Positions 1,113-59,807 of a stretch of DNA of 64,000 nt are shown here, piece after piece. Each line of letters opens with the position of its first letter. Positions within the stretch are counted from its first letter, which is position 1. The DNA is from an uncultured Dehalococcoidales bacterium (GTDB lineage Bacteria > Chloroflexota > Dehalococcoidia > Dehalococcoidales > CAYYQY01): the NCBI GenBank assembly GCA_964473905.1, contig CAYYQY010000002.1, positions 7,683 to 71,682 on the forward strand. The letters are read 5' to 3'. The notes under the pieces are model-generated. The model did no database searches and was not told where the DNA came from. It worked only from the letters and a program-made list of their open reading frames with translations. The translations under genes and the position numbers were made by a program.

Positions 1113-3005
1113 CTATTTATGTACCAGTTCTTTGAGCGCTTTTTCTATGTCGGTTAAAACAGTGGCGTCGTCAATAGTGGATGGGACTTGATACTCTTGC
1201 CTGTCGGCAATCTTTCTCATAGTACTTCTAAGTATCTTGCCCGATCTGGTTTTGGGTAGTGACTTTACCACCACTATCTGCTTTAGAGACGCGATAGCGC
1301 CGATTTCCTCTCTTACCATGCTGATAAGGCTATCGATTATTACCTGATGCTCGGTTTTCACACCGGCCTTCAGTACCACCAGCGCCAGCGGTAGCTGGCC
1401 TTTAAAATCATCGGCAACACCGATAACGGCGCATTCCGCTACATCGGAATGCGTGGCTATGACCTCCTCCATGGCACCGGTTGACAGCCGGTGACCGGCC
1501 ACGTTAATGACATCGTCTACTCTGCCCATCACGAAGATATAGCCGTCACTGTCAATATGGCCGCCGTCGCTGGTAAAATAGTAGCCGGGGAACGGGGCCA
1601 GGTAGGACTCAACGAACTTATCATCGTCTTGCCACAGTGTGGTTAGCGTGCCGGGCGGCAGGGGCATCTTGATAGCTATAATACCTTCGGCATCCGGAGG
1701 TAAAATCTGGCCATTGTTATCCAGAATGGTCACCTGGTAGCCCGGGGCTGCCCTGGTTGGTGAGCCGGCTTTTATGGGGAGCAGCTCAATGCCTGTGCAG
1801 TTAGCCGCGATAGCCCAGCCGGTCTCCGTCTGCCACCAGTGGTCAATTACCGGGACGTGCAGCAGATCCTTTGCCCAGAAGTAGGTATCCGGGTCAAGCC
1901 TCTCACCGGCGAGGAATAGGTATTTAAGGCAGGAAACGTCGTATTTCTTCAGGTAGCTGCCGGCGGCGTCCTCTTTCTTAATAGCCCTGATGGCGGTAGG
2001 TGCCGTAAACAGTGCCCTGACGTTGTGCTGGGATATAACCCGCCAGAAAGCACCCGGGTCAGGTGTGCCCACCGGTTTGCCCTCGTATAGTACCGTAGTG
2101 CAGCCGTAAAGGAGAGGGGCATAAACGATATATGAGTGTCCGACAACCCAACCTACGTCAGACGCTGCCCAGAATACGTCGCCCGGATTCATCCCGTATA
2201 TATGTTTCATGCTCCATTTCATGGCGACAGCATGCCCGCCATTATCTCTGACCACGCCTTTGGGCTTGCCTGTTGTCCCTGAGGTGTAGAGAATGTAGAG
2301 AGGGTCTGTTGATTTAACGGGAGTACAGCCGGCAGGTTCGGCATCCTGTACTAAAGCGGCCCAGTCAAAATCACGTCCGTTTATCAAATTAGCCTGTGCC
2401 TGTTCTCTCTGGTAAATAATGCATTTTTCAGGCTTGTGACTTGCTATCTGGATGGCCTTATCCAGGAGCGGCTTGTATTTGATTACCTTCTTCCCCTCAA
2501 TACCGCACGAAGCAGAAAGGATCAGTTTAGGTCTGGCATCATCAATTCGGATAGCCAGTTCGTGCGGGGCGAACCCCCCGAAGACCACCGAATGTATTGC
2601 CCCAATGCGAGCACAGGCAAGCATGGCTGTCACCGCTTCGGGAATCATGGGCATGTATATTATCACCCGGTCTCCCCGGGATACTCCCTGTGTGGTGAGA
2701 GCTCCTGCCAGCTTTGATACCCTGTCCAGGAGCTCTTTATAGGTAATTTTCTGGCAGGTACCTGTAACCGGGCTATCGTAAATGATGGCTACCTGTTCGG
2801 CGCGCCCGTTTTCGACGTGATAGTCAACCGCGTTATAGCAAGTATTCAATTCTCCGTCCGGGAACCACCTGTAAAACGGCTTGTTTGTGTCGTCAAGAAC
2901 TGATGAGTATTTTTTATGCCATACTATTTCCTGGGCAGCCTTTCCCCAAAAATTATCAGGGTCGCTGATGGACTCCTCGTAGGTTTCCTGGTAGCTTCTA
3001 TCCAA
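1113..3005 (-). CDS. prpE: Short-chain acyl-CoA synthetase, AMP-forming (PrpE/ACSS3-like propionate--CoA ligase)
   Basis: AMP-binding motif YTSGTTGKPKG and the block IYMPMIPEAVTAMLACARIGAIHSVVFGGF. The N-terminus YQETYEESISDPDNFW aligns to PrpE. The ORF track starts at the ATG at 3026, which has no SD. The TTG at 3005 has AAGGAG (3012-3017) at 6-nt spacing, so 3005 is preferred. Confidence 0.85.
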   Translation of the reverse strand: MDRSYQETYEESISDPDNFWGKAAQEIVWHKKYSSVLDDTNKPFYRWFPDGELNTCYNAVDYHVENGRAEQVAIIYDSPVTGTCQKITYKELLDRVSKLAGALTTQGVSRGDRVIIYMPMIPEAVTAMLACARIGAIHSVVFGGFAPHELAIRIDDARPKLILSASCGIEGKKVIKYKPLLDKAIQIASHKPEKCIIYQREQAQANLINGRDFDWAALVQDAEPAGCTPVKSTDPLYILYTSGTTGKPKGVVRDNGGHAVAMKWSMKHIYGMNPGDVFWAASDVGWVVGHSYIVYAPLLYGCTTVLYEGKPVGTPDPGAFWRVISQHNVRALFTAPTAIRAIKKEDAAGSYLKKYDVSCLKYLFLAGERLDPDTYFWAKDLLHVPVIDHWWQTETGWAIAANCTGIELLPIKAGSPTRAAPGYQVTILDNNGQILPPDAEGIIAIKMPLPPGTLTTLWQDDDKFVESYLAPFPGYYFTSDGGHIDSDGYIFVMGRVDDVINVAGHRLSTGAMEEVIATHSDVAECAVIGVADDFKGQLPLALVVLKAGVKTEHQVIIDSLISMVREEIGAIASLKQIVVVKSLPKTRSGKILRSTMRKIADRQEYQVPSTIDDATVLTDIEKALKELVHK

Positions 3006-3487
3006 TTTACTCTCCTTTAAAATCATATCGTTATATTATTTTCCGATCTGTTGTGCGCGGGCGTACCTCCGCTCACTTGAGCCATACGCATGGAAATTGA
3101 AATCAGATAGCGCAGCGTCACGGTATGGGAACAACCTGGCGCTATCACGTAGAAGGAGGTAATAATATCATGGAGGTACGTGCTCTACCATCGAATATAC
3201 AGGATTATACTCCCAATTTATTAAAAGTAAAATACCTGTTAACATTTTTCCGCGAGTATATTCACCACATAAATCTCCTGGGTTACAGGAAAAAAGTAGG
3301 GGGGACTAATTGACGGGAAGATACTGCGCGGTTCCTCATAGCTCAGGCGGGCAGGGTGGCGGGACGGGTATGGCTCATTTCAGCCGCGCCGCACGGTGAT
3401 AGCGATACGGTAAATATAAACATAAATATTGCCGTATCCAAGGCTCGAAATCTACGGCGTATATTCTCCCCCTTTCTTGTAAGGCTA

Positions 3488-3517
3488 TTGACATGGTTTA
3501 GTCCTTATGTGTATAAT
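3488..3517 (+). promoter_or_regulatory. Sigma-70-type promoter, consensus -35 TTGACA and -10 TATAAT with an 18-nt spacer
   Basis: TTGACA at 3488-3493 and TATAAT at 3512-3517, about 55 nt upstream of the ferredoxin ATG at 3572. Confidence 0.6.
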
Positions 3518-3520
3518 GAT

Positions 3521-3542
3521 ATGCGGTAAATATTTACCGCAT
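3521..3542. promoter_or_regulatory. Perfect 22-bp palindrome ATGCGGTAAATATTTACCGCAT overlapping the predicted transcription start (candidate operator or 5' RNA hairpin)
   Basis: The sequence equals its own reverse complement and starts 4 nt after the -10 hexamer. Its 10-mer CGGTAAATAT recurs at 3408-3417 inside a second inverted repeat. Confidence 0.5.
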
Positions 3543-3571
3543 TATTTAGGTGAGGAATACTTATACCGCCG

Positions 3572-4048
3572 ATGAAACGTATATATGTCAATGAGCAGGT
3601 CTGTATCGGTTGCGGGCTGTGCCTGGTCTATTGCCAGGTCGAGCATTCGCCTTCAAAAGACGTGATTAAAGCCTTCAAGCAGGGAAGCACGCCGCCGTTA
3701 GCGTATGTTGCGGTGGAGTGCCGGGGGCCGGTTTCATTTGCCGTGCAATGCCGTCACTGTGAGGATGCCCCCTGTGTTTATGCCTGTCTCACCGGCGCCT
3801 TGCAGAAGGACCCGGATAGTGGCCTGGTGACGGTTGATACGAGCCGGTGTATCGGGTGCTGGACATGCATGTTGTTTTGTCCCTACGGTGCCGTAAGACA
3901 GGCACCGGATAGAAAGACCATCGCCAAATGTGACTATTGTGGTGACAGGGAAATACCGGCCTGTGTAGCCAACTGCCCGAATGAGGCGCTCGTTTATGCC
4001 GAGGCAGATGATACTGTCCTTGATTTCATGGGGGAAGGTCTGAAATGA
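3572..4048 (+). CDS. 4Fe-4S dicluster ferredoxin-like protein (electron-input module of an archaeal-type glutamate synthase cluster)
   Basis: Several CxxCxxCxxxC-type motifs (CIGCGLCLVYC, CRHCEDAPC, CIGCWTCMLFCP, CDYC...CVANCP). The stop overlaps the hisH start (ATGA at 4045-4048). Confidence 0.8.
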   Translation: MKRIYVNEQVCIGCGLCLVYCQVEHSPSKDVIKAFKQGSTPPLAYVAVECRGPVSFAVQCRHCEDAPCVYACLTGALQKDPDSGLVTVDTSRCIGCWTCMLFCPYGAVRQAPDRKTIAKCDYCGDREIPACVANCPNEALVYAEADDTVLDFMGEGLK

Positions 4049-4668
4049 TTGCCGTTATTGATTATGGTGCCGGCAACCTGCGTAGCGTGGTGAATGCGCT
4101 CACCCGCCTGGGCTATCCGTCCCGGGTAACGAGCCGCCCGGAGGAGATTCCTGAGGCGGCGGCAGTGATACTGCCGGGCGTTGGTGCCGCCGGTGATACC
4201 ATGAAGAACCTTAACGAAAAGGGGCTTGCTCAGGCGCTCCGTGACTATGTGGCGAGCGGTCGTCCTTTCTTCGGCGTTTGCCTGGGCTTGCAGGTCTTAT
4301 TTACCGCTACCGAGGAAGGTGGCTACCACGATTGTCTCGGCATAATTCCGGGTAAGGTGAAAAGACTGCCCCCGTGTCTTAAGGTTCCCCACATGGGGTG
4401 GAACCAGGTGAGGCAGCAATGCGAGCACCCTGTTTTTACGGGGATTAAGGATAATGCCTGCTTCTATTTCGTGCACAGCTACTATGCCGAGCCGGATGAT
4501 AGCGATGTTGCCGCCGGTATTACGGATTACGGGGTATCAATCTGTAGCGTGCTGATTAAAAATAACGTCATCGCTACCCAGTTTCACCCGGAAAAGAGCG
4601 GTGAGCCGGGGTTAAAAATGTACGATAATTTTCTTAAGCTGGCTGGAGTAACAGGCTCTCACGGCTGA
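4045..4668 (+). CDS. hisH: Imidazole glycerol phosphate synthase, glutamine amidotransferase subunit HisH
   Basis: N-terminus IAVIDYGAGNLRSV, nucleophile context FGVCLGLQ, HMGWN, and FHPEKSG (His/Glu of the class-I GATase triad). Confidence 0.9.
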   Translation: MIAVIDYGAGNLRSVVNALTRLGYPSRVTSRPEEIPEAAAVILPGVGAAGDTMKNLNEKGLAQALRDYVASGRPFFGVCLGLQVLFTATEEGGYHDCLGIIPGKVKRLPPCLKVPHMGWNQVRQQCEHPVFTGIKDNACFYFVHSYYAEPDDSDVAAGITDYGVSICSVLIKNNVIATQFHPEKSGEPGLKMYDNFLKLAGVTGSHG

Positions 4669-4687
4669 TACATTACAGGAAAATGAA

Positions 4688-5770
4688 ATGAGCGTTGAGA
4701 AAGTAAAGTATCTGATTATAGGTAACTCGGCGGGCGGTATCGGCGCCGCGGAGGCGATACGCGAGGTGGACAGGGAATGCCCGCTGTCCATTGTTTCCGG
4801 CGAGCCGTACCCGGCCTACTCAAGACCGCGTATTGCCGATTACCTGGCAAAACGGTGTCCACTGGAGGGTATGCTGTTTCGGCCGACACGTTTCTATGCG
4901 GAAAATAACGTCAGGACTTACCTGGGGAAAAAGGTGGTCTCCTTATCACTTGAGACACATACCGCTAGACTTGCCGGCGGGGAAGAAATTGGCTGGGAGC
5001 AACTGTTGCTGGCTACCGGAGGTGTCGCTATAATTCCTCCGCTAGCGGGTATTGAGAAAAACGGTGTCTTCACCTTCACTACCCTGGATGATGCCGTATC
5101 CATTGACCGTTCTCTCCGGTCTGATAGCTCGGCGGCAGTTATCGGCGGCGGGCTTATCGGGCTGAGTGTAACGGAAGCCTTAATAAGACGCGGCATCAGG
5201 GTAACCATCGTAGAAAAAGAAGAGTGCCTACTCAGCGTCATGCTGGATGAGATAGCATCCTTACGTGAGGAGTCGGCTCTCCGGCAAGCCGGTGTGAACG
5301 TTATCACCGGCCACATGGTGACATCTATCAACGGGGATGCGGATAGGGTAAACAGTGTAACGTTGGATGACGCCAGTCTTATTCCGTCAGACCTGGTGAT
5401 AATCGCTGCCGGTGTCCGCTCGGCTATTGAGCTTGTTAACGGTACCGGCATAAAGGTAGGTCGTGGTATAACCGTTGACCGTCATATGCAGACCTCCTGG
5501 CCCGGAGTATATAGCTGCGGCGACGTGGCCGAGGCCTTTGACTTTATCACTAATGATACGGCAGTCACTCCCGTGTGGCCCAATGCGTATTTGGGCGGAC
5601 GGGTAGCCGGACTGAACATGGCCGGAGTGGCTACGGAGTATCCGGGTGGTACGCTGGTGAACTCTTTAAAATATTTCGGTGTGGATATCCTGAGCGCCGG
5701 CATAGTAAATCCGCCCGATAGCAGCTATGAGGTGCTATCGGGGGAGCACGGTGATTGCTTATGCCGTTGA
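4688..5770 (+). CDS. FAD/NAD(P)-dependent pyridine-nucleotide-disulfide-type oxidoreductase (NADH-oxidase-like), apparently missing its C-terminal dimerisation region
   Basis: Dinucleotide folds YLIIGNSAGGIGAAEA and AAVIGGGLIGLSVTEAL, plus the FAD motif YSCGDVAE. The frame ends at TGA soon after ...SSYEVLSGE, where homologues continue for several tens of residues. Confidence 0.75.
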   Translation: MSVEKVKYLIIGNSAGGIGAAEAIREVDRECPLSIVSGEPYPAYSRPRIADYLAKRCPLEGMLFRPTRFYAENNVRTYLGKKVVSLSLETHTARLAGGEEIGWEQLLLATGGVAIIPPLAGIEKNGVFTFTTLDDAVSIDRSLRSDSSAAVIGGGLIGLSVTEALIRRGIRVTIVEKEECLLSVMLDEIASLREESALRQAGVNVITGHMVTSINGDADRVNSVTLDDASLIPSDLVIIAAGVRSAIELVNGTGIKVGRGITVDRHMQTSWPGVYSCGDVAEAFDFITNDTAVTPVWPNAYLGGRVAGLNMAGVATEYPGGTLVNSLKYFGVDILSAGIVNPPDSSYEVLSGEHGDCLCR

Positions 5771-6164
5771 TCTGCTGATACGTAAACACAATCTGCCGGT
5801 AGAGGTGGCCGTCCGGGTTATAGCGCCACCTTTCTGGAGCGACATTGAAAGATGCCCCGCGGCAGAGCAGGAACTGCTCCGCAGCCTGCGTCAGGTGTAT
5901 GGCAGCCTGCTATTAAACGGGCCGTTTGCTATTATCATCGCTCACCAGGGCGAGATGATAGGGCTTACCGACCGCGTCCGGCTCCGCCCGCTTACCGTGG
6001 GCGAAAAAGGGGACATGGTTTATCTCTCCTCCGAGGAATCGGCCATACGGCTGGTCTGTCCCGACCTGGATAAAACGTGGATACCGATGGGCGGTGAACC
6101 GGTGATAGTGAAAGTTGGTGAGTCTCCGAGCCGAAAGCCGCGCTGTGCGGTGGGGGAGGCATAA
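5727..6164 (+). pseudogene. Headless fragment of a class-II glutamine amidotransferase (GltB1-like domain of glutamate synthase); the N-terminal Cys nucleophile region is absent
   Basis: The frame opens only at 5709, after a TAA at 5706-5708. The segment PVEVAVRVIAPPFW...LLLNGPFAIIIAHQGEMIGLTDRVRLRPLTVGEKGDMVYLSSEESAI matches the C-terminal third of the GltS amidotransferase domain (PWDGPAxxxF..G...GAxLDRNGLRP...V.ASE). Confidence 0.65.
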
Positions 6165-6165
6165 A

Positions 6166-6948
6166 ATGCTGACCAAGAGAATTATACCCTGTCTGGATTG
6201 CCAGAAGGGACGGGTGGTGAAGGGGACCAGTTTTACCAGTCTGCGCGACGCTGGAGACCCTGCTGAACGCGCTCGTTTTTACTACGAGGGGAGGGCGGAT
6301 GAGCTGGTACTTTTGGACATAACGGCTACGCCGGAGGCAAGAGATAACATGGTCGAGGTAGTTGAGTGTGTTTCGGACGAGATTTTTATACCGCTTACTG
6401 TCGGTGGTGGTCTGCGCAGTATCAAGGACATGAGGCGCATGCTGCTTGCCGGAGCGGACAAGGTCTCCATCAATACGGCAGCAGTGCAGAATACGTCTCT
6501 TATCACAGAGGGTGCCGATAAGCTGGGCAGCCAGTGTATTGTCGTTGCTATTGATGCCAAACGGGTAGCAGACAGTGACAAACCCCGCTGGGAGGTCTAT
6601 ACGCACAGCGGCCAGAGACCGACGGGTATGGACGCTGTCGCCTGGGCGAAACAGGTGGTGGTACTGGGGGCCGGGGAAATACTGCTCACCAGCATTGATG
6701 CTGACGGGCACCGGGCAGGTTACGATACGGGACTCTACCGGGCCGTTGCCGACACGGTAAGTGTGCCGGTTATTGCGAGCGGCGGTGCCGGTAACCTGGA
6801 AGACATGTATGAGGTGCTGAGTTACGGCCGGGCGGATGCCGTGCTGGCGGCCAGTATCTTTCACTACGGGATTCACTCTATCCGTGAGGCTAAAAAATAC
6901 CTGTCGGCAAAAGGTATGCCAGTACGTATGGAGGAGGAGGGGTTGTGA
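6166..6948 (+). CDS. hisF: Imidazole glycerol phosphate synthase, cyclase subunit HisF
   Basis: [44 protein letters not shown] and IASGGAG align end to end with HisF, and both catalytic Asp contexts are present. ATG at 6166 (the ORF track begins upstream at 6115). The stop overlaps the next start (GTGA at 6945-6948). Confidence 0.9.
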
Positions 6949-8450
6949 AGACATACATATCACCCAGGTTCCGTGTGGAACGGGACCCCGACCGCTGCAT
7001 ACAGTGCCAGGTGTGTGTTAACCAGTGCACCTTTGACACGCACCGCTATGACATTGAAAATGACGAAGTGGTTAGCCATGAAGAAAATTGCGTTGGCTGT
7101 CACCGCTGCGTTGTCTTTTGCCCGACGCGGGCACTCACTGTCAGCCGGAACCCGCTGGAGTACCGGCAGAACTATAACTGGCGCAGTGAGTATATAGAGG
7201 ATATATTAAAGCAGGCGGAAAGCGGCGGCATGCTTCTCACCGGGATGGGTAACGATAAGGGCTATCCCATCTACTGGGACCACCTGGTGCTTAATGCCAG
7301 CCAGGTAACCAATCCGTCTATTGACCCGCTGCGTGAGCCTATGGAGTTGATTACCTACCTGGGCCGCAAACCCGACCGTATAGAGATTGACAGTGACTCG
7401 CTCAGTCTGAAGACCAAAATGGCGCCGCAGGTCAAGCTGGAGGTGCCCATCATGTTTGCCGCCATGTCCTACGGAGCGGTGAGCATTAATGTGCACGAGT
7501 CTATGGCTAGGGCGGCCGCGGTCTCGGGCACGCTCTGGAATACCGGGGAGGGAGGCCTGCACTCCAAACTGTATAAATATGGGAATAATACCATCGTACA
7601 GGTTGCCTCGGGGCGGTTCGGTGTCAATCGGGAGTACCTTGACGCCGCCAGAGTAATTGAAATCAAGATAGGCCAGGGTGCCAAGCCCGGTATTGGCGGG
7701 CACCTGCCGGGAGAAAAGGTAAGCGCCGAGGTATCCTTAACGCGGATGATTCCGGAGGGGACGGATGCCCTGTCTCCGGCGCCGCAGCACGATATCTACT
7801 CCATTGAAGACCTGGCGCAGCTGATTTATGCCTTGAAAGAAGTAACGCAATATGCCAAGCCGGTATCGGTCAAGATAGCCGCCGTCCATAACTCGGCGGC
7901 TATTGCCAGCGGCATGGTGCGTGCCGGGGCGGATATTATTGTAATTGACGGGCTCAGAGGGGCTACCGGTGCCGCACCCAAGGTTATCCGCGATAATATC
8001 GGTATCCCTGTGGAGATGGCTCTCGCCTCGGTAGACACGCGCCTCAGGCAGGAGGGCATACGCAACCAGGCTTCTATCGTGGTCTCGGGAGGCATCAGAA
8101 ATAGCGGTGACGTGGCCAAGGCAATCGCCCTCGGCGCTGATGCGGTGTATATCGGGACGGCGGCTTTAATAGCGCTGGGTTGCCGTGTCTGTCAGCAGTG
8201 CCATACGGGTAAATGTGCCTGGGGTATCTGCACCACCGACCTGGCTTTAACCAGGAGGGTCAACCCGGATATCGGTGCCCGGAGGCTGTCCAATCTCCTG
8301 CGCGGTTGGAGTCTGGAGCTTAAAGAGATGCTGGGCGGTATGGGCACCAATGCCCTGGAAAGCCTGCGGGGTAACCGCCTGCACCTGAGGGGTGTCGGGC
8401 TCACCGACACGGAGCTTGACATTCTGGGAGTAAAGATGGCAGGAAGTTAA
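6945..8450 (+). CDS. Glutamate synthase FMN-binding subunit (archaeal-type GltB2) with an N-terminal 2x[4Fe-4S] ferredoxin domain
   Basis: [11 protein letters not shown] and [12 protein letters not shown] at the N-terminus, then [32 protein letters not shown] and the C-terminal [18 protein letters not shown]. Confidence 0.9.
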
Positions 8451-8452
8451 AA

Positions 8453-9214
8453 ATGACGATAGATATTGAAAGTAAGGTACCAATAATAGATGCCCGTGGC
8501 ATCCGCTACCGCGAACTGAATGCCATGATAAGAGATTGTGTTTCCGGCGGCTCGAGGCAAATAGAGCTCAGGAATGTCTGCGGGCAGCGATATATCGGCA
8601 CCAGCCTTAATAAACCGGTTGAGATTAACATTACAGGTATACCGGGCAATGACCTGGGGGCATTTATGGACGGGCCGAGGATTACTGTCCGCGGGAATGC
8701 TCAGGACGGCTGCGGCAATACCATGAACGAAGGGGAGATTATTATTCACGGGCATGCCGGAGACATAGTCGGGCTTTCCGCCCGGGGCGGTAAAATCTTT
8801 GTCCGTGATGACGTCGGTTACAGGGCCGGTATTCATATGAAGCAGTATCAGGATAAGAGGCCGGTGCTGGTCGTCGGCGGCACTGCCCAGGACTTCCCCG
8901 GCGAATACATGGCGGGGGGTATTCTGATATTGCTGGGTCTGAACCTGGGAGAAGCAGAGTCGCACCGGGCTAATTTTGTCGGTACCGGGATGCACGGTGG
9001 GGTTATCTACCTGAGAGGCCACATTGATGATTTCCGGCTCGGTAAGGAGATAGGTATGGCTGAACTAAATGACAGCGATTACCGCGTTTTGGAGACATAT
9101 ATTGGTGAGTTTGCCGGGTATTTTGGATATAATACCGGGGACATTTTAAACCATAAATTTACGCGGCTGTCCCCTCTCTGGCTGCGGCCTTACGGCAGGA
9201 TATATACTTATTAA
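8453..9214 (+). CDS. Glutamate synthase GXGXG-repeat subunit (archaeal-type GltB3)
   Basis: Repeated glycine-rich beta-helix blocks ITGIPGNDLGAFMDGPRITVRGNAQDGCGNTMNEGEIIIHGHAGDIVG...GGKIFVRDDVGYRAG. The start lies 2 nt after the gltB2 stop. Confidence 0.88.
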   Translation: MTIDIESKVPIIDARGIRYRELNAMIRDCVSGGSRQIELRNVCGQRYIGTSLNKPVEINITGIPGNDLGAFMDGPRITVRGNAQDGCGNTMNEGEIIIHGHAGDIVGLSARGGKIFVRDDVGYRAGIHMKQYQDKRPVLVVGGTAQDFPGEYMAGGILILLGLNLGEAESHRANFVGTGMHGGVIYLRGHIDDFRLGKEIGMAELNDSDYRVLETYIGEFAGYFGYNTGDILNHKFTRLSPLWLRPYGRIYTY

Positions 9215-9297
9215 GGGCAAAGGTGGATAATTATATAAACAAGAGCCAGCGGTCAAGACGACAATGAAATTTGGGAAAAGTTAAAAGGAGGCTCAAC

Positions 9298-10680
9298 ATG
9301 CCGGATAAACATGTATCGCAAGAATTTGGGGGAGATGAGGAAAGCACCACACTGTTACGCAAAAGGGAAGCCGTACTCCAGAAGGCAAAGGAGCATAATG
9401 TAAAGTTCATCAGGCTGTGGTTTACCGACATACTGGGGTTCCTCAAGAGCTTTACCATAACCGTTGAAGAACTGGCAGGGGCCATGGAGGAAGGCATGGG
9501 CTTTGACGGCTCTTCAATCCAGGGGTTCGCCCGTATTGATGAAAGCGACATGGTGGCGTTGCCTGATCCCGATACTTTCCGGGTATTGTCGTGGCGACCC
9601 CGGGAGAATAGTGCCGTAGCCCGGATGTTCTGTGATGTGCTGAAGCCCGGCGGTGAGATCTTCGAAGGTGACCCCAGGTATGTACTCAAGAAGAATCTAA
9701 AGCGGGCAGCGGACATGGGTTACACGTTCTATGTCGGGCCGGAGTTGGAATATTTCTACCTGCGTGATGACAAAGGTACCGAGCTTCTGGACCAGGGTGG
9801 CTACTTTGATATGACGCCGCGGGATGCCGCTACCGACCTGAGGAAAGAGACCGTGCTTACTCTGGAGGATCTGGGTATTGGCATTGAGTACTCGCACCAT
9901 GAGGTCGCTCCCAGCCAGCATGAGATAGACATGCGGTATACGGATGCTTTAACCATGGCCGACAACGTGATGACCTACCGTCTGGTGGTTAAAGACGTAG
10001 CGCTACAAAACGGGGTCTATGCCACATTCATGCCCAAGCCGGTATTCGGCATTAACGGCAACGGCATGCATGTTCACCAGTCGCTGTTTAAGGGTGAGCG
10101 CAACGTTTTCTTTGACAAAAATGATAAGTACCACCTGTCCGGGATAGCCAGGAGCTATATAGCCGGCCTATTAGAACACGCACCGGAAATCACGGCGGTC
10201 ACCAACCAGTGGGTCAACTCCTATAAACGGCTGGTTCCCGGCTACGAGGCGCCGGTTTATGTATCCTGGGCCCGGCGTAACCGCTCCGACCTGGTCCGGG
10301 TGCCGGAGTACCGGCCGGGGAGAGAAAAATCAACCAGGATTGAATTCAGGTCACCAGACCCGGCCTGTAACCCTTACCTGGCTTTCAGCGTCATGCTGGC
10401 CGCCGGGCTGGAAGGTATTGAGGGAGAATACAAAATTCCGGAGCCGATAGAAGAAAACATTTACGAGATGAGCGAAGAGGAGAGGCAAAAAAGAGGTATT
10501 AATACACTGCCGCCCGATCTACTGGAAGCTATACGTCTTGCCGAGAACAGTAAGCTGGTGCGAAAGGCTCTCGGCGAGCATGTTTTCCATGCCTTTATTG
10601 CCAATAAGAAAATTGAGTGGCATCAGTACCGGTCTCAGGTAACAGAATACGAGATTAAGAAATACTTGCCCATTCTGTAA
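9298..10680 (+). CDS. glnA: Glutamine synthetase, type I
   Basis: FDGSSIQGF, NGNGMHVHQSLF, SWARRNRSDLVRVP and RIEFRSPDPACNPYLA. ATG at 9298 follows AAAGGAGG (9284-9291). The ORF track begins upstream at 9271. Confidence 0.92.
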   Translation: MPDKHVSQEFGGDEESTTLLRKREAVLQKAKEHNVKFIRLWFTDILGFLKSFTITVEELAGAMEEGMGFDGSSIQGFARIDESDMVALPDPDTFRVLSWRPRENSAVARMFCDVLKPGGEIFEGDPRYVLKKNLKRAADMGYTFYVGPELEYFYLRDDKGTELLDQGGYFDMTPRDAATDLRKETVLTLEDLGIGIEYSHHEVAPSQHEIDMRYTDALTMADNVMTYRLVVKDVALQNGVYATFMPKPVFGINGNGMHVHQSLFKGERNVFFDKNDKYHLSGIARSYIAGLLEHAPEITAVTNQWVNSYKRLVPGYEAPVYVSWARRNRSDLVRVPEYRPGREKSTRIEFRSPDPACNPYLAFSVMLAAGLEGIEGEYKIPEPIEENIYEMSEEERQKRGINTLPPDLLEAIRLAENSKLVRKALGEHVFHAFIANKKIEWHQYRSQVTEYEIKKYLPIL

Positions 10681-10714
10681 ACTGAAATAGCTCACCGTGT
10701 GGGGAGGTATTAGT

Positions 10715-10795
10715 ATGCGTGGGTTGAGAATTGGCCTGGCACAAATTAATACTATCGTGGCTGACTTTGACGGTAATTTACGTAAGGTGTTTTAA
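10715..10795 (+). pseudogene. 26-codon N-terminal stump of glutamine-dependent NAD+ synthetase (NadE, CN-hydrolase domain)
   Basis: MRGLRIGLAQINTIVADFDGNLRKVF* matches NadE N-termini (MKxLRIxLAQxNxxxGDxxGNxxK). It keeps a GGGGAGG SD at 10701-10707 but ends at TAA after 26 codons. Confidence 0.6.
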
Positions 10796-10858
10796 AACAG
10801 GTGGATAGCATTTCCGGGGGACTTATGTCTGCATCTGGCTATATGGAGGGAGTCTATA

Positions 10859-13800
10859 ATGCGTCAAGGGGGAAGTCCTGAAGTAGAGAAAAAGGTAATC
10901 ACCATTCTTAAAGTTCTAAGTGAGTCCTCGGAATCGCTGGGCTCAATCACGATAGCCAGAGAGCTCAGGCGTTACGGCGTATTCTTAACGGAGCGGGCGG
11001 TGAGGTATCATCTCAAGATAATGGATGAGAGGGGATATACCTACTCTCTGGGCCGCGATGGTAGAATACTGACGCCAAAAGGTATGGATGAGCTGGCTAT
11101 AGCTCTCGCCCCGCAACAGGTAGGCTTTATTCTAAATAAGCTTGAACTGCTGGCTTTCTACACCACTTTTAACCCGGAGACAAAGACCGGCAATGTGCCT
11201 ATCAATACCTCTCTCATAGATAAAGACCAGTTCGGCGATACGCTGGCAGCCATGGCGGACGCCTTTAAGGCGGGTATATGCGTGAGTGACTTGGTAGCTA
11301 TGGCCACCGAAGGTGACAAGCTGGGCTCGGTGGTCATCCCTACCGGCAAGATAGGTCTGGCTACCGTGTGCAGTGTCGTTATAAATGGTGTGTTACTGAA
11401 ATCGGGTATCCCGGTAGATTCCAGGTTCGGCGGACTGCTGGAAGTCATAGATTCCAAACCGCAGCGCTTTGTGACCGCCATAAATTACAACGGTACTTCC
11501 GTTGACCCCTCCGAGCAGTGCATTCTTTCCGGTATGACCAGTGTGCAAAAAGTAGTTGAAACCGGCAGCGGTAAGCTGCTCGCCAATTTCCGCGAAATAA
11601 TAGCCCCGTCGCGGTCAGCCGTTGAAGAAATAATAGCCTCACTTAAAAAGGCGGGTATCGGCGGTGTGTATGTTTTGGGTAATACCAGTGAGGTCACCTG
11701 CAAAATCCCGGTAGAGCTTAACAAGGTCGGTATGGTCCTCTTGGGCGGATTAAACCCGGTGGCGGCTGCCATTGAGCAGGGGTTTAAAATTGAGAACGCA
11801 AGCGAGAGCGGGACGATTGATTATCAGCGTCTTAAAAAATTCTCACAGCTTGACGGGGTGCCGAAGCAGGCGGTGATGGCTAGTAGAAGGCAGCTTGGTC
11901 CCGGTTATCAGGAGACTACTAAACACGAGCCGCATAAACTTGGCAGCGGTTCACCTGAGCTTGACGAGCTTTTACAGGGGTTTCAAGACGGTGACAACAT
12001 CGTATGGCAGATAGATAGTCTGAGCGACTACACCCATTTTGCGGAGCTATTTGCCGACCAGGCTACCCGGGAGGGGCGTGAGTGCCTCTATTTCCGGTTT
12101 GCGCTGCACCAGGCTATTCTCAAGCCCCGTGCCGGAGTAACTATCGTAGAAATTGAACCGTCACCCGGATTTAATTTTTTCAGCGAAAAAGTGAGCAGCA
12201 TCATCGAGGAACGGGGCAGTAATGTTTATTATGTTTTTGATAATCTGTCAGCGCTGGTAGCCAGCTGGGCTACCGACGAGCTTCTGTCCGACTTCTTCCG
12301 GGTAACCTGTCCGCATATACTGGAAGCAGGCGCGGTAGCCTACTTCGCGCTAACCCGCGGGCAGCACGCCCACACCGCTATCGCTCGGATACGGGATACT
12401 ACCCAGATACTGATCGACATCTACCATATGCAGGGTGCCATGTACCTGCATCCCCTGAAGGTATGGGGGCGCTACTCGGCCCAGATGTTCCTGCCGCACC
12501 TTATCTCAGAGGCAGGATGGTCGCCGGTCTTCCAAAGTGGCGAAGCAGCCAGAATATCTTCATCCATGTATAAACAGCCGCTCAGTGTCGCCGTGCCCTC
12601 TATTGCTCCTTGGGAAAGTGTATATGCCAAGCTTATGCAGTTTCGCCAGGCGCGGGGAAAGCTGGATGAGAGCGACCCGGAAATAAAATCTCTCAAGCAT
12701 GAGCTTACCCGGATGATTATCGGCGAACACAGGTCATTTAACCGGCTCGCCAGTAAGTACTTCACCGTGGATGACCTCATTGAAATCAGGAACCGCATCA
12801 TCGGCACCGGTCACATCGGCGGTAAGGCCGCCGGTATGTTGCTCGCCAGGCGTATCCTGTTGACGGAAAAGGGTGAGGTGGACTATTCACAGGTTCTTGA
12901 GCCTCACGATTCGTTCTATATCGGCTCGGACGTGTTTTTTACCTTTCTGGTTAATAACGACCTGTTTCAGCTTGGCCTGCAGGTCAATAAGGACTGGCAA
13001 ATCTCAGCGGAGGAGTTTGAAAAAATCGAGCAGCTTTTCCTGAATGGGGAATTCACTCCGGAGATAGTCGGGCAGTTTCGGGATATGCTGGACTATTTTG
13101 GCCAGGCACCTATTATCGCCAGGTCCAGCAGCTTGATGGAAGATAGCCTGGGCAATGCCTTCGCCGGTAAGTATATGAGCATTTTTTGCCCTAACCAGGG
13201 TGACCCCGAAGAGCGTCTCGAGGAGTTCCTGCATGCCGTCAAGCTCATTTACGCCAGTGTGCTTAACCCGGATGCCGTCTCTTACCGGGTGAAACAGGGG
13301 CTTTATGAAAGTGACGAGCAGATGGCTATACTGGTGCAGCGTGTATCCGGGACAGCATACAAGCACTATTTCTTTCCACCTCTTGCCGGCGTAGCTTTTT
13401 CCAAGAATTTATACCGGTGGGCTGACCGTATTGACCCGCAGAAGGGGATAATCAGGCTTGTCTTCGGCCTGGGAACCCGGGCGGTTAACCGTGTTGGTGG
13501 TGACTATCCCCGGATGATAGCCATATCTCACCCGCAGCTCCGTCCGGAGTACGGTGCCCGGATAGCCAAGTACTCGCAGCACAATATGGATTTGCTTGAC
13601 CTGAAATCAAACATGTTCACCTCCAGACTGGTTACGGATGTGCTTGGCGATTACGATTATCCTAACCTGCGCCTTATCGCATCGCAGATGGAGGATGGTT
13701 ATACCCACGATGTCACCAGCATTTCCCCTGAGGCATCAGCTACGTATCTCCTTCTGACATTTAACAACCTTACTGAAAAGACACCGTTTGTTAAAATCAT

Positions 13801-14542
13801 GGGTGATATGCTTACCAGATTGGAAGAGGCCTATGGCTATCCCATAGATTCCGAGTTTACGGCTCACGTGAGACCCGATGGTGAGGTGAGGGTTAATCTA
13901 TTGCAGTGCCGCTCACTCAGGTTGCCCGGCACGTCACTATCTGTTGAAATACCGGAAAACATACCTGCCGAGCGGACATTATTCACGTCCAAGCGCTTCA
14001 TAAGCGGGGGCATGGTACAAAACATACGCTACATCCTGTATATAGACCCGGTCAAGTATGCTGCAACAGCGCCGGAGGCCAAAAAAACGCTGGGTAGAGT
14101 GGTGGGGCGTGTCAACAAGCACCCGTCTATTATTGAGGGCAAGATAATGATGATGGGGCCGGGCAGATGGGGTAGCAGCAACACCGAACTGGGGGTAAAT
14201 GTCGGCTATGCGGACATTGATAATACCTCCGTTCTGGTAGAGATTGCCCGTGAGGAGACAGGGCATATCCCGGAGGTGTCCTACGGTACTCGTTTCTTTC
14301 AGGATCTGGTTGAGGCAAATATCATGTATTTGCCCGTTTACCCCGGCGACCCGGATACTGCCTTTAATGCGGCGTTCTTTGACTCCTCACCCAACATAAT
14401 CGGCGAACTCCTGCCCGAGACAGCCGGGTTTGACGGTGTGGTACAATTAATTGACGTTCCAGCCGTAACCGGCGGGCAATACGCGCAAATTATAGCCGAG
14501 CTGCAAAATCAGAGGGCGATTTGTTTTACCGGCCCTGAGTAG
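10859..14542 (+). CDS. Fusion protein: NrpR-type nitrogen regulator (wHTH + DUF128) - KaiC/RecA-like domain lacking a P-loop - PPDK_N (PEP/pyruvate-binding ATP-grasp) domain
   Basis: aa 1-335: ITILKVLSES..ERAVRYHLKIMDERGY..GKIGLATVCSVVINGVLLKSGIPVDSRFGGLLEV..NYNGTSVDPSE (NrpR pattern). aa ~355-560: SPELDELLQGFQDGDNIVWQIDS... (KaiC-like, no GKT). aa ~640-end: IGGKAAGMLLARR, IIARSSSLMEDS, FAGKY, MAILVQRVSG (PPDK_N). The frame is a single uninterrupted ORF with a GGAGGGA SD before the ATG. Confidence 0.75.
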   Translation: MRQGGSPEVEKKVITILKVLSESSESLGSITIARELRRYGVFLTERAVRYHLKIMDERGYTYSLGRDGRILTPKGMDELAIALAPQQVGFILNKLELLAFYTTFNPETKTGNVPINTSLIDKDQFGDTLAAMADAFKAGICVSDLVAMATEGDKLGSVVIPTGKIGLATVCSVVINGVLLKSGIPVDSRFGGLLEVIDSKPQRFVTAINYNGTSVDPSEQCILSGMTSVQKVVETGSGKLLANFREIIAPSRSAVEEIIASLKKAGIGGVYVLGNTSEVTCKIPVELNKVGMVLLGGLNPVAAAIEQGFKIENASESGTIDYQRLKKFSQLDGVPKQAVMASRRQLGPGYQETTKHEPHKLGSGSPELDELLQGFQDGDNIVWQIDSLSDYTHFAELFADQATREGRECLYFRFALHQAILKPRAGVTIVEIEPSPGFNFFSEKVSSIIEERGSNVYYVFDNLSALVASWATDELLSDFFRVTCPHILEAGAVAYFALTRGQHAHTAIARIRDTTQILIDIYHMQGAMYLHPLKVWGRYSAQMFLPHLISEAGWSPVFQSGEAARISSSMYKQPLSVAVPSIAPWESVYAKLMQFRQARGKLDESDPEIKSLKHELTRMIIGEHRSFNRLASKYFTVDDLIEIRNRIIGTGHIGGKAAGMLLARRILLTEKGEVDYSQVLEPHDSFYIGSDVFFTFLVNNDLFQLGLQVNKDWQISAEEFEKIEQLFLNGEFTPEIVGQFRDMLDYFGQAPIIARSSSLMEDSLGNAFAGKYMSIFCPNQGDPEERLEEFLHAVKLIYASVLNPDAVSYRVKQGLYESDEQMAILVQRVSGTAYKHYFFPPLAGVAFSKNLYRWADRIDPQKGIIRLVFGLGTRAVNRVGGDYPRMIAISHPQLRPEYGARIAKYSQHNMDLLDLKSNMFTSRLVTDVLGDYDYPNLRLIASQMEDGYTHDVTSISPEASATYLLLTFNNLTEKTPFVKIMGDMLTRLEEAYGYPIDSEFTAHVRPDGEVRVNLLQCRSLRLPGTSLSVEIPENIPAERTLFTSKRFISGGMVQNIRYILYIDPVKYAATAPEAKKTLGRVVGRVNKHPSIIEGKIMMMGPGRWGSSNTELGVNVGYADIDNTSVLVEIAREETGHIPEVSYGTRFFQDLVEANIMYLPVYPGDPDTAFNAAFFDSSPNIIGELLPETAGFDGVVQLIDVPAVTGGQYAQIIAELQNQRAICFTGPE

Positions 14543-14681
14543 CCGGTATTCATTTATCCAGGCCCCCTATCTGGCTTTGGGCAGAAACGCCAAGCTATCA
14601 TGGTGCAGCAAAGCCGGCTTGCCTGGCATCAAAACTAGTTTTATGAGGTCGGTTTTATTATGTTTATCGGTGTGGTAGAAT

Positions 14682-14909
14682 ATGCTCGACATGAAAGAGG
14701 ACATTGATAAACCTATAGACGAGCTGTTTACCAAGATAAGACTAAAGCTGCTTGATATCAGGCAAACAGACCCGGAGTTAGTTGAAGAGCTGAAGAACCT
14801 GCTGGTTCAGCTTGAAGACTATGTGCAGTCGCTGATAATAGATTCGATGAAGTTACAGGATCTAAAAGACGCTCGCAAGAAAAAGAGGCAGGAAAAGAAT
14901 AACGACTGA
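14682..14909 (+). CDS. Hypothetical small coiled-coil protein
   Basis: 75-aa charged, heptad-like sequence with no recognisable family. The start is uncertain (ATG at 14682 or 14691). Confidence 0.3.
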   Translation: MLDMKEDIDKPIDELFTKIRLKLLDIRQTDPELVEELKNLLVQLEDYVQSLIIDSMKLQDLKDARKKKRQEKNND

Positions 14910-15022
14910 TTTGCCCTTTCATCATTCACTATCCCTATCCCCGCCAGGCTGTTTTCTTTGCCCGTACGACAGTCATCTTTTCCGTTACCGCAAGTCCCGC
15001 TGAACGATTTTTAGCCCGATTC

Positions 15023-15051
15023 TTGACAAATGCGGGTATTATTGCTAGTAT
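15023..15051 (+). promoter_or_regulatory. Sigma-70-type promoter (TTGACA - 17 nt - TAGTAT) upstream of yloV-like gene
   Basis: TTGACA at 15023-15028 and TAGTAT at 15046-15051, about 115 nt upstream of the ATG at 15166. Confidence 0.45.
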
Positions 15052-15165
15052 GCCTAGGTAGTCTAGGTATGTATTTACCTGGATAGCAACATAGGCAGGT
15101 CGTAGCCTGCGTGTTAGAATAAAATCGTGCATTAGCGGACAAATAATGTAAGAGCCGGGTGGGAA

Positions 15166-16806
15166 ATGACGCAGAATGGGGCTATTAGCGGACATCAGTT
15201 CAAGATGATGTTTGCTACCGCTACCGATTGGCTGGGGAAAAGCAGCGAAGAGATAAATGCTTTGAATGTCTTCCCGGTGCCTGACGGTGATACCGGGACC
15301 AACATGACGCTTACCATGCAGTCCAGCGTAGAAGAGGCGGCGCGGGTCATCGAGATTAACGTGTCCTCTATTGCTGAAGCCATGGCCAGGGGGGCTTTGC
15401 TGGGGGCGAGGGGCAACAGCGGTGTCATACTATCGCTTATCTGGCAGGGTCTCGCCCGAAGTATTGCCGGTAAGGATAGCATCGGCAGCCGGGATTTGGC
15501 CGATGCCTTCAAGCAGGCGGAGGAAGCGGCCTATTCGGGAATAAATAATCCCGTGGAAGGTACCATTTTAACGGTATTGAAAGAGGTAGCCCGGGACAGC
15601 CGGTGCCAGGTGGCTAAAGGTGAAGGCAACGTAGTTGCCGTTTTGCAGGCGGCGGTGGATGCGGCGCGGGAGGCGGTAGCCAATACGCCTAACCAGCTGC
15701 CGGTGTTAATGGAGGCCGGGGTAGTGGATGCCGGGGGGCAGGGACTGTATACCCTGCTGGAGGGGGTGCTTCTCTCTCTCACGGATAAAACCGGCGAGTT
15801 GCAGTCCGGCAAATCAGAGATGATAAGCAGCGGTGCGTACATCAGTGCCTACCAGCCGGTAATAGATGATGGTAGCGAAATACCCTATGGCTACTGCACC
15901 CAGTTTTTGGTGCGGGGTGAAGACCTGGACCCGGATGCCATAACGGCCGGTCTCAGGGATAAGGGGGAGTCGCTGGTGGTGGTTGGTAGCGGGTCTGCCG
16001 TGAGAATTCATATTCATGCTCTGGACCCGGGCGAAATTATACACTATGCCGTCTCGCTCGGTACGCTTCATGATATTAACATACGTAACATGGACGAGCA
16101 GGTGGCCGATATGCTGACAGCCCAGACCGGGGAGTCGCCGGCTATCAAATCTGGAGTGGCTGTGATTGGCGTAGTCCTGGGTAGCGGGCTATCGGAGCTG
16201 TTTATTAAGCTCGGGGCAGCCGCTGTTGTTCCGGGAGGGCAGACGATGAATCCCAGCACTCGGGATATTCTTCAGGTGATAGATGCCGTGCCGGCTAATG
16301 ACATCATCGTTCTCCCCAACAACAAGAACGTAGTACTGGCGGCACAGAAAACCAAGTCATTATCAGAGAAGAATGTGGTGGTTATACCTACGGTTAGTAT
16401 TCCGCAGGGCATAGCCACCCTGGTGGCTTTTGAGCCCGAAGCAGACCTGCAAACCAATATTGGCCTTATGACCGAAGCCAGAGTAACAGTTAAAACTATA
16501 GAGGTCACCCGTGCCACACGTTCTACCAAACTGAATGGTTTTAACATTCACAAGAACCAGTCTATAGGTATGCTGGACAATAAGCTACTGGCCGTTGGTG
16601 ATGAAGCCGCTGACGTCATAATTGATATTCTGGCTAAAACCGATCTCAGCGAAGCCGAAATGGTCACCCTCTACCGGGGTGCTGACACAGAAGATGCTGA
16701 TGTGGAGCGTGTGAGCGCTGCCATTTGCCAGCATTATCCGGAGCTGGACGTTGATATTATTAAAGGGGGCCATCCTCACTACAACTATATCATCTCCGTA
16801 GAATAA
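15166..16806 (+). CDS. DAK2 domain-containing protein (YloV family)
   Basis: LNVFPVPDGDTGTNM and ARGNSGVILS motifs. The 546-aa length and the downstream DegV partner are typical. Confidence 0.85.
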   Translation: MTQNGAISGHQFKMMFATATDWLGKSSEEINALNVFPVPDGDTGTNMTLTMQSSVEEAARVIEINVSSIAEAMARGALLGARGNSGVILSLIWQGLARSIAGKDSIGSRDLADAFKQAEEAAYSGINNPVEGTILTVLKEVARDSRCQVAKGEGNVVAVLQAAVDAAREAVANTPNQLPVLMEAGVVDAGGQGLYTLLEGVLLSLTDKTGELQSGKSEMISSGAYISAYQPVIDDGSEIPYGYCTQFLVRGEDLDPDAITAGLRDKGESLVVVGSGSAVRIHIHALDPGEIIHYAVSLGTLHDINIRNMDEQVADMLTAQTGESPAIKSGVAVIGVVLGSGLSELFIKLGAAAVVPGGQTMNPSTRDILQVIDAVPANDIIVLPNNKNVVLAAQKTKSLSEKNVVVIPTVSIPQGIATLVAFEPEADLQTNIGLMTEARVTVKTIEVTRATRSTKLNGFNIHKNQSIGMLDNKLLAVGDEAADVIIDILAKTDLSEAEMVTLYRGADTEDADVERVSAAICQHYPELDVDIIKGGHPHYNYIISVE

Positions 16807-18662: not shown

Positions 18663-19802
18663 ATGGAGGCTATGGACAGATTGTCTTCTCATCTGAAGAC
18701 AAGGTTGGGCGATTTGCGTAAGGTAAAAAAGGAGGGGCGCAAGATTATCGGATATCCGCCGGGGGGTTATCTACCCGAGGAGTTGGTACTGGCGTCCGGG
18801 GCCATACCGATATGCCTGATACGAGGGGGCGACCATGCTCCCGTTGAACTTTCCGGAGCTTATATTTGCCGCTGGATAGATACTTTCTACCGGGCACAGA
18901 TTGGCTACGGGATTTCCGGGGACGATCCGTACTACAACGTTATTGATCTTCTGGCCGTAGCCATGACGGATAATCACGTCCGTGCCCTGGAAGACGTTCT
19001 TGATTATAACACCGATATTGAGGTATTTACCTTTGGTGTACCTCATATGAAAGAAGATAGCACGTTCAAGTATTATTTACATGGTATAAACACTCTTAAA
19101 GCAAAACTCGAGGAGTTTACCGGGGTAGAGATTACGGATTCGAAACTTAAAGAAACCATCGCTTTGTGTAACCGGGAAAGGGAGCTTTTAAAGGAGATTA
19201 GCTTGCTGCGGAAGAGTGTTCCGGCACCTATCAGCGAGAAAGACTATGTGGCACTGCATCACGGTTCCCTGCTGGCCGACAAGGTGTTTATGGTTGAGAT
19301 TTTAGAATCTGTTCTGGATGAGCTAAAGCAGCGGCCGGTACCGGCGAGCGAAGGTCCCAGGATCCTGTTAACCGGCTCAACGTTAGCTATGGGGGACTAT
19401 AGAGTTCTTGATTCGGTAGAGGACGCCGGCGGCAGCATTGTCATTGAAGAGTTTGCCGAGGGCATCAGACCCTACTGGCATAATGTAAGTCCGGACGGAG
19501 ATTTAATGTCTGCCCTGGCTGACTGCTATTTTATGCAGCGAGTGCCGCCTGCCTGGTTCCGGCCGGGGAAAGAAAGGCTTGATTTTGTCATCAAACTGGC
19601 TAAAGACTTCAACGTGTCCGGGGTTATCTGGTACCAGCTTATGTACCGCGAATCTTATAAGACGGAGTCGTACTACTTCCCGGATAGGCTCAAGAAAGAG
19701 ACCGGTTTACCTATGCTCACGCTGGAATCAGACTATGACCAGTCCGAGACAGAGCAGATGCGGACACGGGTTGAGACCTTTGTGGAGACTATAAGGAGAT
19801 AG
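18663..19802 (+). CDS. 2-hydroxyacyl-CoA dehydratase / benzoyl-CoA reductase family subunit (HgdB/BcrC-like)
   Basis: 379 aa. IIGYPPGGYLPEELVLASGAIPICL near the N-terminus and the C-terminal LESDYDQSETEQMRTRVETFVETI signature of the BcrC/BadD/HgdB family. Confidence 0.75.
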   Translation: MEAMDRLSSHLKTRLGDLRKVKKEGRKIIGYPPGGYLPEELVLASGAIPICLIRGGDHAPVELSGAYICRWIDTFYRAQIGYGISGDDPYYNVIDLLAVAMTDNHVRALEDVLDYNTDIEVFTFGVPHMKEDSTFKYYLHGINTLKAKLEEFTGVEITDSKLKETIALCNRERELLKEISLLRKSVPAPISEKDYVALHHGSLLADKVFMVEILESVLDELKQRPVPASEGPRILLTGSTLAMGDYRVLDSVEDAGGSIVIEEFAEGIRPYWHNVSPDGDLMSALADCYFMQRVPPAWFRPGKERLDFVIKLAKDFNVSGVIWYQLMYRESYKTESYYFPDRLKKETGLPMLTLESDYDQSETEQMRTRVETFVETIRR

Positions 19803-19804
19803 AT

Positions 19805-21214: not shown

Positions 21215-21368
21215 AAGAATAAAACTGGAGTATAAGAATTATAGATAGTAGCGGCACCGCTGTGGTTGCTGCTGACCGCAAAGCATCAGTGGACTTTGGT
21301 ATCAGCCATTCTGTTGCAGGTCATACGAAACGGGGTCTTGCAACTTTATGATTGTAAGGAGTTGAGAC

Positions 21369-59757: not shown

Positions 59758-59807
59758 GGCTAAGTCTCTGTCTCTTCTCTGTCAGCTGTTATAAATCCTT
59801 GCTGCCC

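Follow-up and report, generated by a model that had tools for sequence, protein, structure and literature searches.

Split-subunit glutamate synthase (GOGAT) clusters are found in Thermotoga and some Firmicutes. Separate open reading frames (ORFs) for the glutamate synthase domains GltB1, GltB2 and GltB3 have also been noted for Archaea (PMC8097209). The locus studied here, at positions 3488-10680 of a 64,000-nt stretch of contig CAYYQY010000002.1 (the window) from an uncultured Dehalococcoidales bacterium, resembles these "archaeal-type" clusters in having separate GltB1, GltB2 and GltB3 ORFs together with ferredoxin-like and flavoprotein genes, all in the same order. However, in most Dehalococcoidia the ferredoxin gene (fdx) is followed by hisH and gltB2 is preceded by hisF, and in the window itself gltB1 is cut to its C-terminal third and the flavoprotein lacks ~90 C-terminal residues. 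The evidence given below indicates that hisH and hisF are probably ordinary genes of imidazole glycerol phosphate synthase (IGPS), embedded in and co-regulated with an NrpR-controlled operon for GOGAT and glutamine synthetase (GS), and that a recent, lineage-specific deletion lies beside them. No description of hisH or hisF inside a Dehalococcoidia GOGAT operon was found in the literature searched (full text); many public genomes nevertheless show the arrangement, with the genes already bearing the annotation HisF.

The known counterparts of the two his genes are the IGPS subunits HisH and HisF of Thermotoga maritima (1GPW) and Thermus thermophilus (1KA9), with which the window proteins share catalytic, gate and interface residues. 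HisH (207 aa; 4045-4668, + strand), the class-I glutaminase subunit, scored 224.4 bits against the NCBIfam equivalog model TIGR01855 (cut-off 105.4), and HisF (260 aa; 6166-6948, + strand), the cyclase subunit, scored 352.7 bits over its full length against the equivalog model TIGR00735 (cut-off 294.55). The 8 distinct PDB sequences matched by HisH at E <= 1e-15 were all IGPS HisH subunits, and the best PDB matches of HisF were HisF-LUCA (4evz, the closest chain), T. thermophilus HisF and T. maritima HisF. In HisH, the motifs GVCLGLQ (with the nucleophile Cys), HMGWN and FHPEKS align with the HisH structures 4gud and 1ka9, and the Cys-His-Glu triad is present. An alignment with T. maritima HisF gave an identity of ~55%, and in T. 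maritima numbering the window HisF keeps R5, D11, K19, E46, D98, K99, Q123, D130, E167 and D176 as well as both phosphate-binding sites. These include the catalytic residues D11 and D130, the ammonia gate R5/E46/K99/E167, and D98 and Q123 at the HisH interface. The catalytic contexts noticed in the preliminary description (GVCLGLQ/HPEKS in HisH, CLD/AIDAK in HisF) are indeed there. Judged by these models and alignments, HisH and HisF are canonical subunits of the glutamine-dependent IGPS heterodimer and most probably have its ordinary role, the conversion of phosphoribulosyl formimino-aminoimidazole carboxamide ribonucleotide (PRFAR) and glutamine to imidazole glycerol phosphate (IGP), aminoimidazole carboxamide ribonucleotide (AICAR) and glutamate.

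The setting of the genes differs from that of the known IGPS genes, in that they lie outside any his operon, are not adjacent, and occupy two positions in the GOGAT operon behind an NrpR-type operator. No hisA or hisB was found near the operon, and no other his gene and no other hisH-, hisF- or hisA-like sequence in the 64-kb window. HisHF-type pairs recruited outside histidine synthesis are known in the WbuY/WbuZ and AglZ/HisF2-family sugar-amidation pairs. However, the window HisF is not of that type; a WbuZ/AglZ-type sugar-amidation paralog was ruled out because HisF falls below the cut-offs of both the WbuZ and the AglZ/HisF2 models (268 and 219 bits, versus 353 on the HisF model). A hisH-hisF pair downstream of gltB3 in one relative (locus L028) was rejected as a second IGPS copy and has no bearing on IGPS, since it belongs to the AglZ/HisF2 sugar-amidation family.

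The relatives used for comparison were 80 loci obtained by a GltB2 scan of one genome per GTDB species (cited by number, L009 and so on), nearly all labelled Dehalococcoidia, Dehalococcoidales or Chloroflexota and with a GltB2 80-87% identical to that of the window. Gene presence was scored by tblastn with the window proteins and full-length orthologues. The common order in the relatives is fdx-hisH-flavoprotein-gltB1-hisF-gltB2-gltB3. Among the 57 scorable loci, hisH and hisF were both present at the same two positions in 44, both absent in 12, and represented by hisF only in 1 and by hisH only in none; the 12 loci without them have the plain order fdx-flavoprotein-gltB1-gltB2-gltB3. The preliminary description had taken the arrangement for a derived operon, a reading it would have given up if this order proved to be the ordinary ancestral one of the clade with an intact GltB1. 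This is what the synteny comparison found, as the 44 loci with both genes have GltB1 intact.

The interleaved layout is apparently the common and ancestral order in Dehalococcoidia rather than a peculiarity of this genome, and the hisH/hisF pair seems to have been lost repeatedly and jointly, because the loci without his genes fall in at least 7 separate places among the his-bearing loci in a neighbor-joining (NJ) tree of GltB2 and because a decayed hisH remnant persists at the expected position in L009. Most simply, hisH and hisF would have entered the operon before the group diversified, to be inherited with it afterwards and lost together several times. Both the HisH and the HisF distances are correlated with those of GltB2 (Mantel r 0.69 and 0.42, respectively, p = 0.001). 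The clade-wide median intergenic distance is -1 to 23 nt at every junction between his and GOGAT genes, and glnA stands directly 3' of gltB3 also in L019, L031, L049, L052 and L078. Junctions that involve an optional ORF of 122 aa, orf122, measure 30 to ~100 nt. This conserved ORF (MSYNWGPHYIVPSEV...WDT..LENGQYE...) stands between fdx and the gene that follows, either hisH or that of the flavoprotein, at 5658-6026 of L021 and likewise in 16 further relatives. It has no NCBIfam match and is absent from the window, and some relatives carry it at other places as well, close to glnA or nrpR.

In the window, the ORF list, translations and junction sequences agree with the eight same-strand frames, overlaps and gaps described previously for 3488-10680, all on the + strand behind a single promoter. 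The first gene, present also in the relatives, is fdx (3572-4048), which encodes a polyferredoxin-like 4Fe-4S protein of 158 aa (Fer4_11 and related families); its stop codon and the ATG of hisH share the sequence ATGA at 4045. After a gap of 19 nt follows the truncated gene of a flavin adenine dinucleotide/NAD(P) flavoprotein (4688-5770; Pyr_redox_2, PadH/NirB-like, by Pfam, NCBIfam and orthologue alignment), whose 3' end is overlapped by a 145-codon frame (5727-6164) containing the gltB1 remnant. The remnant sequence itself, from the class-II glutaminase subunit, spans 5745-6164 according to orthologue alignment and DNA junction alignment, and is separated from hisF by 1 nt. The stop codon of hisF and the GTG start of gltB2 share GTGA at 6945. 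Both the Glu_synthase and the GXGXG subunit of the split glutamate synthase are present, the former as gltB2 (6945-8450; 501 aa; PF01645, 460.6 bits, and Fer4 families), with a flavin mononucleotide (FMN)/synthase domain and an N-terminal 2x[4Fe-4S] domain, and the latter, after 2 nt, as gltB3 (8453-9214; 253 aa; PF01493, 114.3 bits). The last gene, glnA, encodes a type I glutamine synthetase of 460 aa from the ATG at 9298 (9298-10680; TIGR00653, 537 bits) and is preceded by a gap of 83 nt without a terminator-like site.

No convincing terminator-like site was found between the operon genes, the best one (14527-14548) coming after the next gene, and a scan of the whole window at Rfam gathering thresholds found no riboswitch or leader before the operon, its only hits being RNase P and one tRNA. 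One promoter, short or overlapping junctions and the lack of an internal terminator are features of a single operon from fdx to glnA, although the 83-nt gap could hold a weak promoter, and we infer that all the genes share one transcript. The layout recurs, with a nucleotide identity of at least 99.99%, in six contigs from ENA, JGI and Logan samples, and it is therefore not an assembly artefact. That hisH and hisF are split from each other, without hisA or hisB neighbours, each abutting GOGAT-cluster genes in an archaeal-type operon that runs on into glnA, is accordingly borne out.

Transcription would start from a sigma-70 promoter, TTGACA-18 nt-TATAAT (3488-3517, + strand), which matches the consensus at 12 of 12 positions and is the only such match in 3000-15200. 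A putative NrpR-type operator at 3521-3542, a perfect 22-bp palindrome made up of ATGCGGTAAAT and ATTTACCGCAT (arms 100% complementary) and placed 4 nt after the -10 box, is conserved in the relatives; its core is CGGTAA-N4-TTACCG, which equals GGTA-N6-TACC. An imperfect inverted repeat upstream of the promoter (GATACGGTAA ... TTGCCGTATC, 3404-3438; 10-nt arms, 90% complementary, 15 nt apart) carries an operator half-site and is a possible second operator. In the relatives, the regions upstream of fdx show TTGACA, a -10-like hexamer (TAnnnT) and then CGGYAA-N4-TTRCCG at the same position. The strict 16-mer has 28 matches in the 1.26 Mb of fetched loci, with 26 of the 28 directly upstream of fdx and 1 upstream of nrpR. 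A relaxed motif, GG[CTA]A-N6-T[AGT]CC, occurs in 51/56 of the fdx upstream regions and also before all four of the nrpR genes heading nrpR-hisF2 operons (hisF2 being a second hisF, described below), where it has the exact form GGAA-N6-TTCC. The latter sequence is reportedly the Methanococcus NrpR operator consensus (Lie & Leigh).

In methanogens, nif and glnA are repressed by NrpR, which responds to 2-oxoglutarate (PMC9765008). The locus resembles the NrpR regulon of methanogenic Euryarchaeota in having an adjacent NrpR homologue (HTH_12 + NRD1_2) and a palindrome of the same geometry over the transcription start. However, the host here is a bacterium, the promoter is of the sigma-70 type, the targets include GOGAT and IGPS, and the NrpR is fused to a PPDK_N-containing region. 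The palindrome reads GGTA-N6-TACC in the window, and the exact methanogen form GGAA-N6-TTCC stands before nrpR-hisF2 in the relatives. Four GGTA-N6-TACC sites are present in the window, the three others at 15066, 15871 and 34026, versus ~1 expected; since 2 of 100 shuffles reach 4, no regulon is claimed inside the window, where the strict 16-mer matches just once more besides the promoter site, with 1 mismatch. The site at 15066-15079 is intergenic and just upstream of fakA (15166). That at 34026-34039, also intergenic, is upstream of the gene (34062) for a 472-aa protein with a C-terminal OmpR-type DNA-binding domain.

Directly after glnA, a single ORF of 1227 aa (10859-14542, + strand) encodes an NrpR-type regulator (HTH_12 + NRD1_2, residues 1-~330, by Pfam) fused to a C-terminal region of ~890 aa with PPDK_N, an ATP-grasp, phosphoenolpyruvate-utilising domain. 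The NrpR domains scored 65 bits (PF08461) and 261 bits (PF01995) over residues 14-326, and it is probably this product that binds the operator as its regulator. In the relatives NrpR has ~331 aa and the PPDK_N-like protein is separate, its gene lying beside a Glu_synthase-like one (L049 1118-3886; L093 8950-11574). That the two are joined in the window suggests that they are functionally linked. Genes for nrpR adjoin the GOGAT operons in the relatives too. Because of this adjacency and the conserved operator, an NrpR-type nitrogen control is inferred for all genes of the operon, hisH and hisF among them. The "glutamine-economy" co-expression of IGPS, GOGAT and GS suggested in the preliminary description is thus reasonable, and is strengthened by the conserved NrpR-type operator at the promoter, but it is not special to this genome, the order being typical of the clade.

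Other glutamine amidotransferase genes (pdxT, purL/Q, nadE and asnB-like) also stand beside nrpR in the clade. At L087 2663-8799 (- strand), genes for a glutamine-dependent NAD synthetase, PurQ, PurL/PurS and PdxT are clustered divergently from nrpR-hisF2, and an AsnB-like gene lies downstream, so that glutamine amidotransferase genes are locally concentrated about an NrpR-type promoter.

The explanation favoured here can be put as follows. The operon would be the Dehalococcoidia form of the split GOGAT operon, in which hisH and hisF have long been resident, the one following the ferredoxin gene and the other in the interval from gltB1 to gltB2. All of its genes would be transcribed from one strong sigma-70 promoter whose start region is covered by the palindromic NrpR-type operator, and repression by NrpR would be lifted by 2-oxoglutarate at nitrogen scarcity, as in methanogens. 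The glutamine-consuming step of histidine synthesis would then be expressed together with GOGAT, and here also with GS, according to nitrogen status. If this is true, a whole bacterial class expresses this step with its nitrogen-assimilation operon, under a type of repressor otherwise studied only in methanogens, and a defined operator sequence for a bacterial NrpR is at hand. It would also be a clear case in which nitrogen, and not the end product, controls a step of an amino-acid pathway.

Several points weigh against this explanation. Co-transcription and nitrogen control are predicted from sequence, and the link between operator and NrpR consists of the likeness to the methanogen operator and the gene neighbourhood. 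If hisH and hisF are the only IGPS genes, repression at nitrogen excess would mean histidine starvation, and therefore the control would have to be leaky or a second enzyme present. The NJ tree is that of a single protein, GltB2, and is poorly resolved, so that the number of independent losses is approximate. Moreover, many relatives have a conserved second HisF, for which reason an "ordinary housekeeping" role can be ascribed to the operon copy only as a probable one.

This second paralog, HisF2, is encoded on the same contig as the operon hisF in L031, L034, L059, L067, L080 and L092 and is ~55% identical to the operon copy. It scored 336 bits, above the HisF equivalog cut-off, and in the alignment it keeps the catalytic D11 and D130 and the phosphate-binding residues. 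In most members, S122-Q123-A124, which face HisH, are altered to K-E-K. Compared over the same genome pairs, HisF2 and the operon HisF evolve equally slowly, and the HisF2 clade is large, the best 120 matches being 84-100% identical to the L080 query. For HisF the best 120 matches were 71-100% identical, and these best matches of both proteins were close Dehalococcoidia relatives, with no outgroups among them. In 4/5 look-ups nrpR is immediately upstream of hisF2, overlapping or abutting it, and the two would be translationally coupled; the hisF2 regions are L080 1720-5074, L087 9007-12349, L091 5007-8352, L092 4995-8352, L093 5003-8724 and L089 10001-12049. What follows hisF2 is either a glutaminase-less Glu_synthase-like protein of 520-540 aa, sometimes with NuoE/F/G-like or AsnB-like genes, or a glutamate dehydrogenase (GDH), the latter in L089 and L093. 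No hisH was found beside hisF2 in the loci looked up, the operon hisH of L092 being ~2 kb off on the opposite strand. HisF-type genes are thus tied to nitrogen-assimilation genes twice, and this gives support for a "glutamine economy" at the level of the clade.

The existence of HisF2 opens an alternative in which IGP synthase has two regimes, the HisH-HisF pair of the operon serving under nitrogen limitation and HisF2, with ammonia or another glutaminase, under nitrogen sufficiency. In that case a cell could do without the operon pair, and its repeated joint loss would be explained. The retained active site, the slow evolution and large clade of HisF2, its coexistence with the operon copy, the altered HisH-facing residues without a hisH alongside, and the GDH or Glu_synthase-like neighbours are all in keeping with it, and HisF alone reportedly uses ammonia in vitro (Klem & Davisson 1993; Beismann-Driemeyer & Sterner 2001). 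However, hisF2 also lies behind an NrpR-type operator and would be derepressed under the same, not the opposite, conditions. Moreover, hisF2 is known from relatives, and the interface changes are only suggestive, so that this alternative is considered rather unlikely. A further elaboration, doubtful in our view, is that the clade has two nitrogen-wired IGPS systems, an NrpR-controlled, glutamine-dependent HisH-HisF and a HisH-independent HisF2, paralleling the split between GS-GOGAT and GDH; HisF2 would then be the first natural stand-alone ammonia-using IGP synthase, or else a partner or sensor of NrpR. The association of HisF2 with NrpR is the most promising lead from this locus.

It could also be supposed that the his genes came into the operon by chance rearrangements and were kept because operons are hard to break, without any selected link to nitrogen. 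The his genes are scattered in many lineages, and 12/57 of the lineages are cleanly without both genes while their GOGAT operon still looks functional, which speaks for such neutral hitch-hiking. On the other hand, two positions with tight or overlapping junctions have been kept while GltB2 diverged by up to ~20%, the presence of hisH and hisF is strictly joint (both in 44, neither in 12, one in 1), and an independent tie to nrpR and nitrogen-assimilation genes exists for a second hisF paralog. Neutral retention is therefore regarded as improbable.

Under the favoured explanation, that of ordinary IGPS genes co-regulated with the GOGAT/GS operon, what sets this genome apart is the damage to the genes between hisH and hisF. 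All relatives with coverage have a flavoprotein of ~440 aa and a GltB1 of 363-383 aa. The window flavoprotein matches the ~440-aa orthologue over residues 2-351 and continues for 7 codons in out-of-frame gltB1 sequence, and the window GltB1 aligns to residues ~240-360 of the 383-aa orthologue, with the N-terminal nucleophile part gone. The DNA alignment places the junction near 5748-5752, with ~975 bp missing and the two halves out of frame. What had been described as an overlap into the glutaminase fragment, in the sense of start/stop coupling, is in fact the scar of this deletion. The class-II (N-terminal nucleophile, Ntn) glutaminase subunit with its N-terminal catalytic Cys is lacking in the window operon, where the GltB1 remnant has no Pfam hit; for the relatives, the context of this Cys was read as ...DACSLFGV... 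in L007, the sole locus where it was read, and GATase_2/6 Pfam hits are recorded for the L092 orthologue.

The identical scar was found in the six contigs from ENA, JGI and Logan samples, which had been fetched by protein identity. Since six independent metagenome contigs carry it, the deletion is real and fixed in this population. A scan of metagenome contigs with the exact 28-nt sequence just upstream of the junction gave no match and is hence uninformative on intact variants. By comparison with the relatives, the ~975-bp deletion is the only feature specific to this genome and is a recent, lineage-specific event. The remnant has possible starts at ATG 5727 and GTG 5751, and a 137-aa C-terminal fragment of GltB1 is called by metagenome gene callers. 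This fragment could still be translated, because the deletion leaves a Shine-Dalgarno-like GGGGGAG before GTG 5751.

The preliminary description had also speculated that HisH might compensate for the decapitated class-II glutaminase. That HisH, with HisF as an ammonia conduit, feeds GltB2 and GltB3 in place of the deleted GltB1 could be suggested by the missing GltB1 catalytic part beside intact and tightly coupled gltB2, gltB3, hisH and hisF, and by a deletion fixed in six near-identical contigs, with which the organism evidently lives, but it is very improbable and without comparative support, since the same his positions in 44 relatives with intact GltB1 make hisH and hisF older than and independent of the truncation, and so no recruitment in response to it, while HisF has retained all of its PRFAR active site and the canonical interface with HisH, HisH is activated by substrate-loaded HisF and is not a free glutaminase, GltB2 shows no feature hinting at a new docking partner, and a GOGAT crippled or using ammonia directly after the recent deletion is a simpler explanation. 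The reading of the locus is thereby corrected, in that the split his genes are ordinary for the clade and the lineage-specific event is the loss of the GOGAT glutaminase. The GOGAT here is probably not glutamine-dependent, and ammonium assimilation must therefore run differently in this organism, which matters for metabolic models.

Some other features of the window may be mentioned. Three consecutive genes of the HGD-D family (2-hydroxyacyl-CoA dehydratase or benzoyl-CoA reductase-like D components) lie at 18663-22781 (+ strand), followed on the opposite strand by a radical S-adenosylmethionine (SAM)/SPASM gene at 22892-24013. At 57530-61893 (- strand), two unannotated ORFs are flanked by the genes for a HerA-like helicase (DUF87 + HAS barrel) and a NurA nuclease, an archaeal-type end-resection pair in a bacterium. 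The RNase P RNA carried by the window is of the bacterial type.

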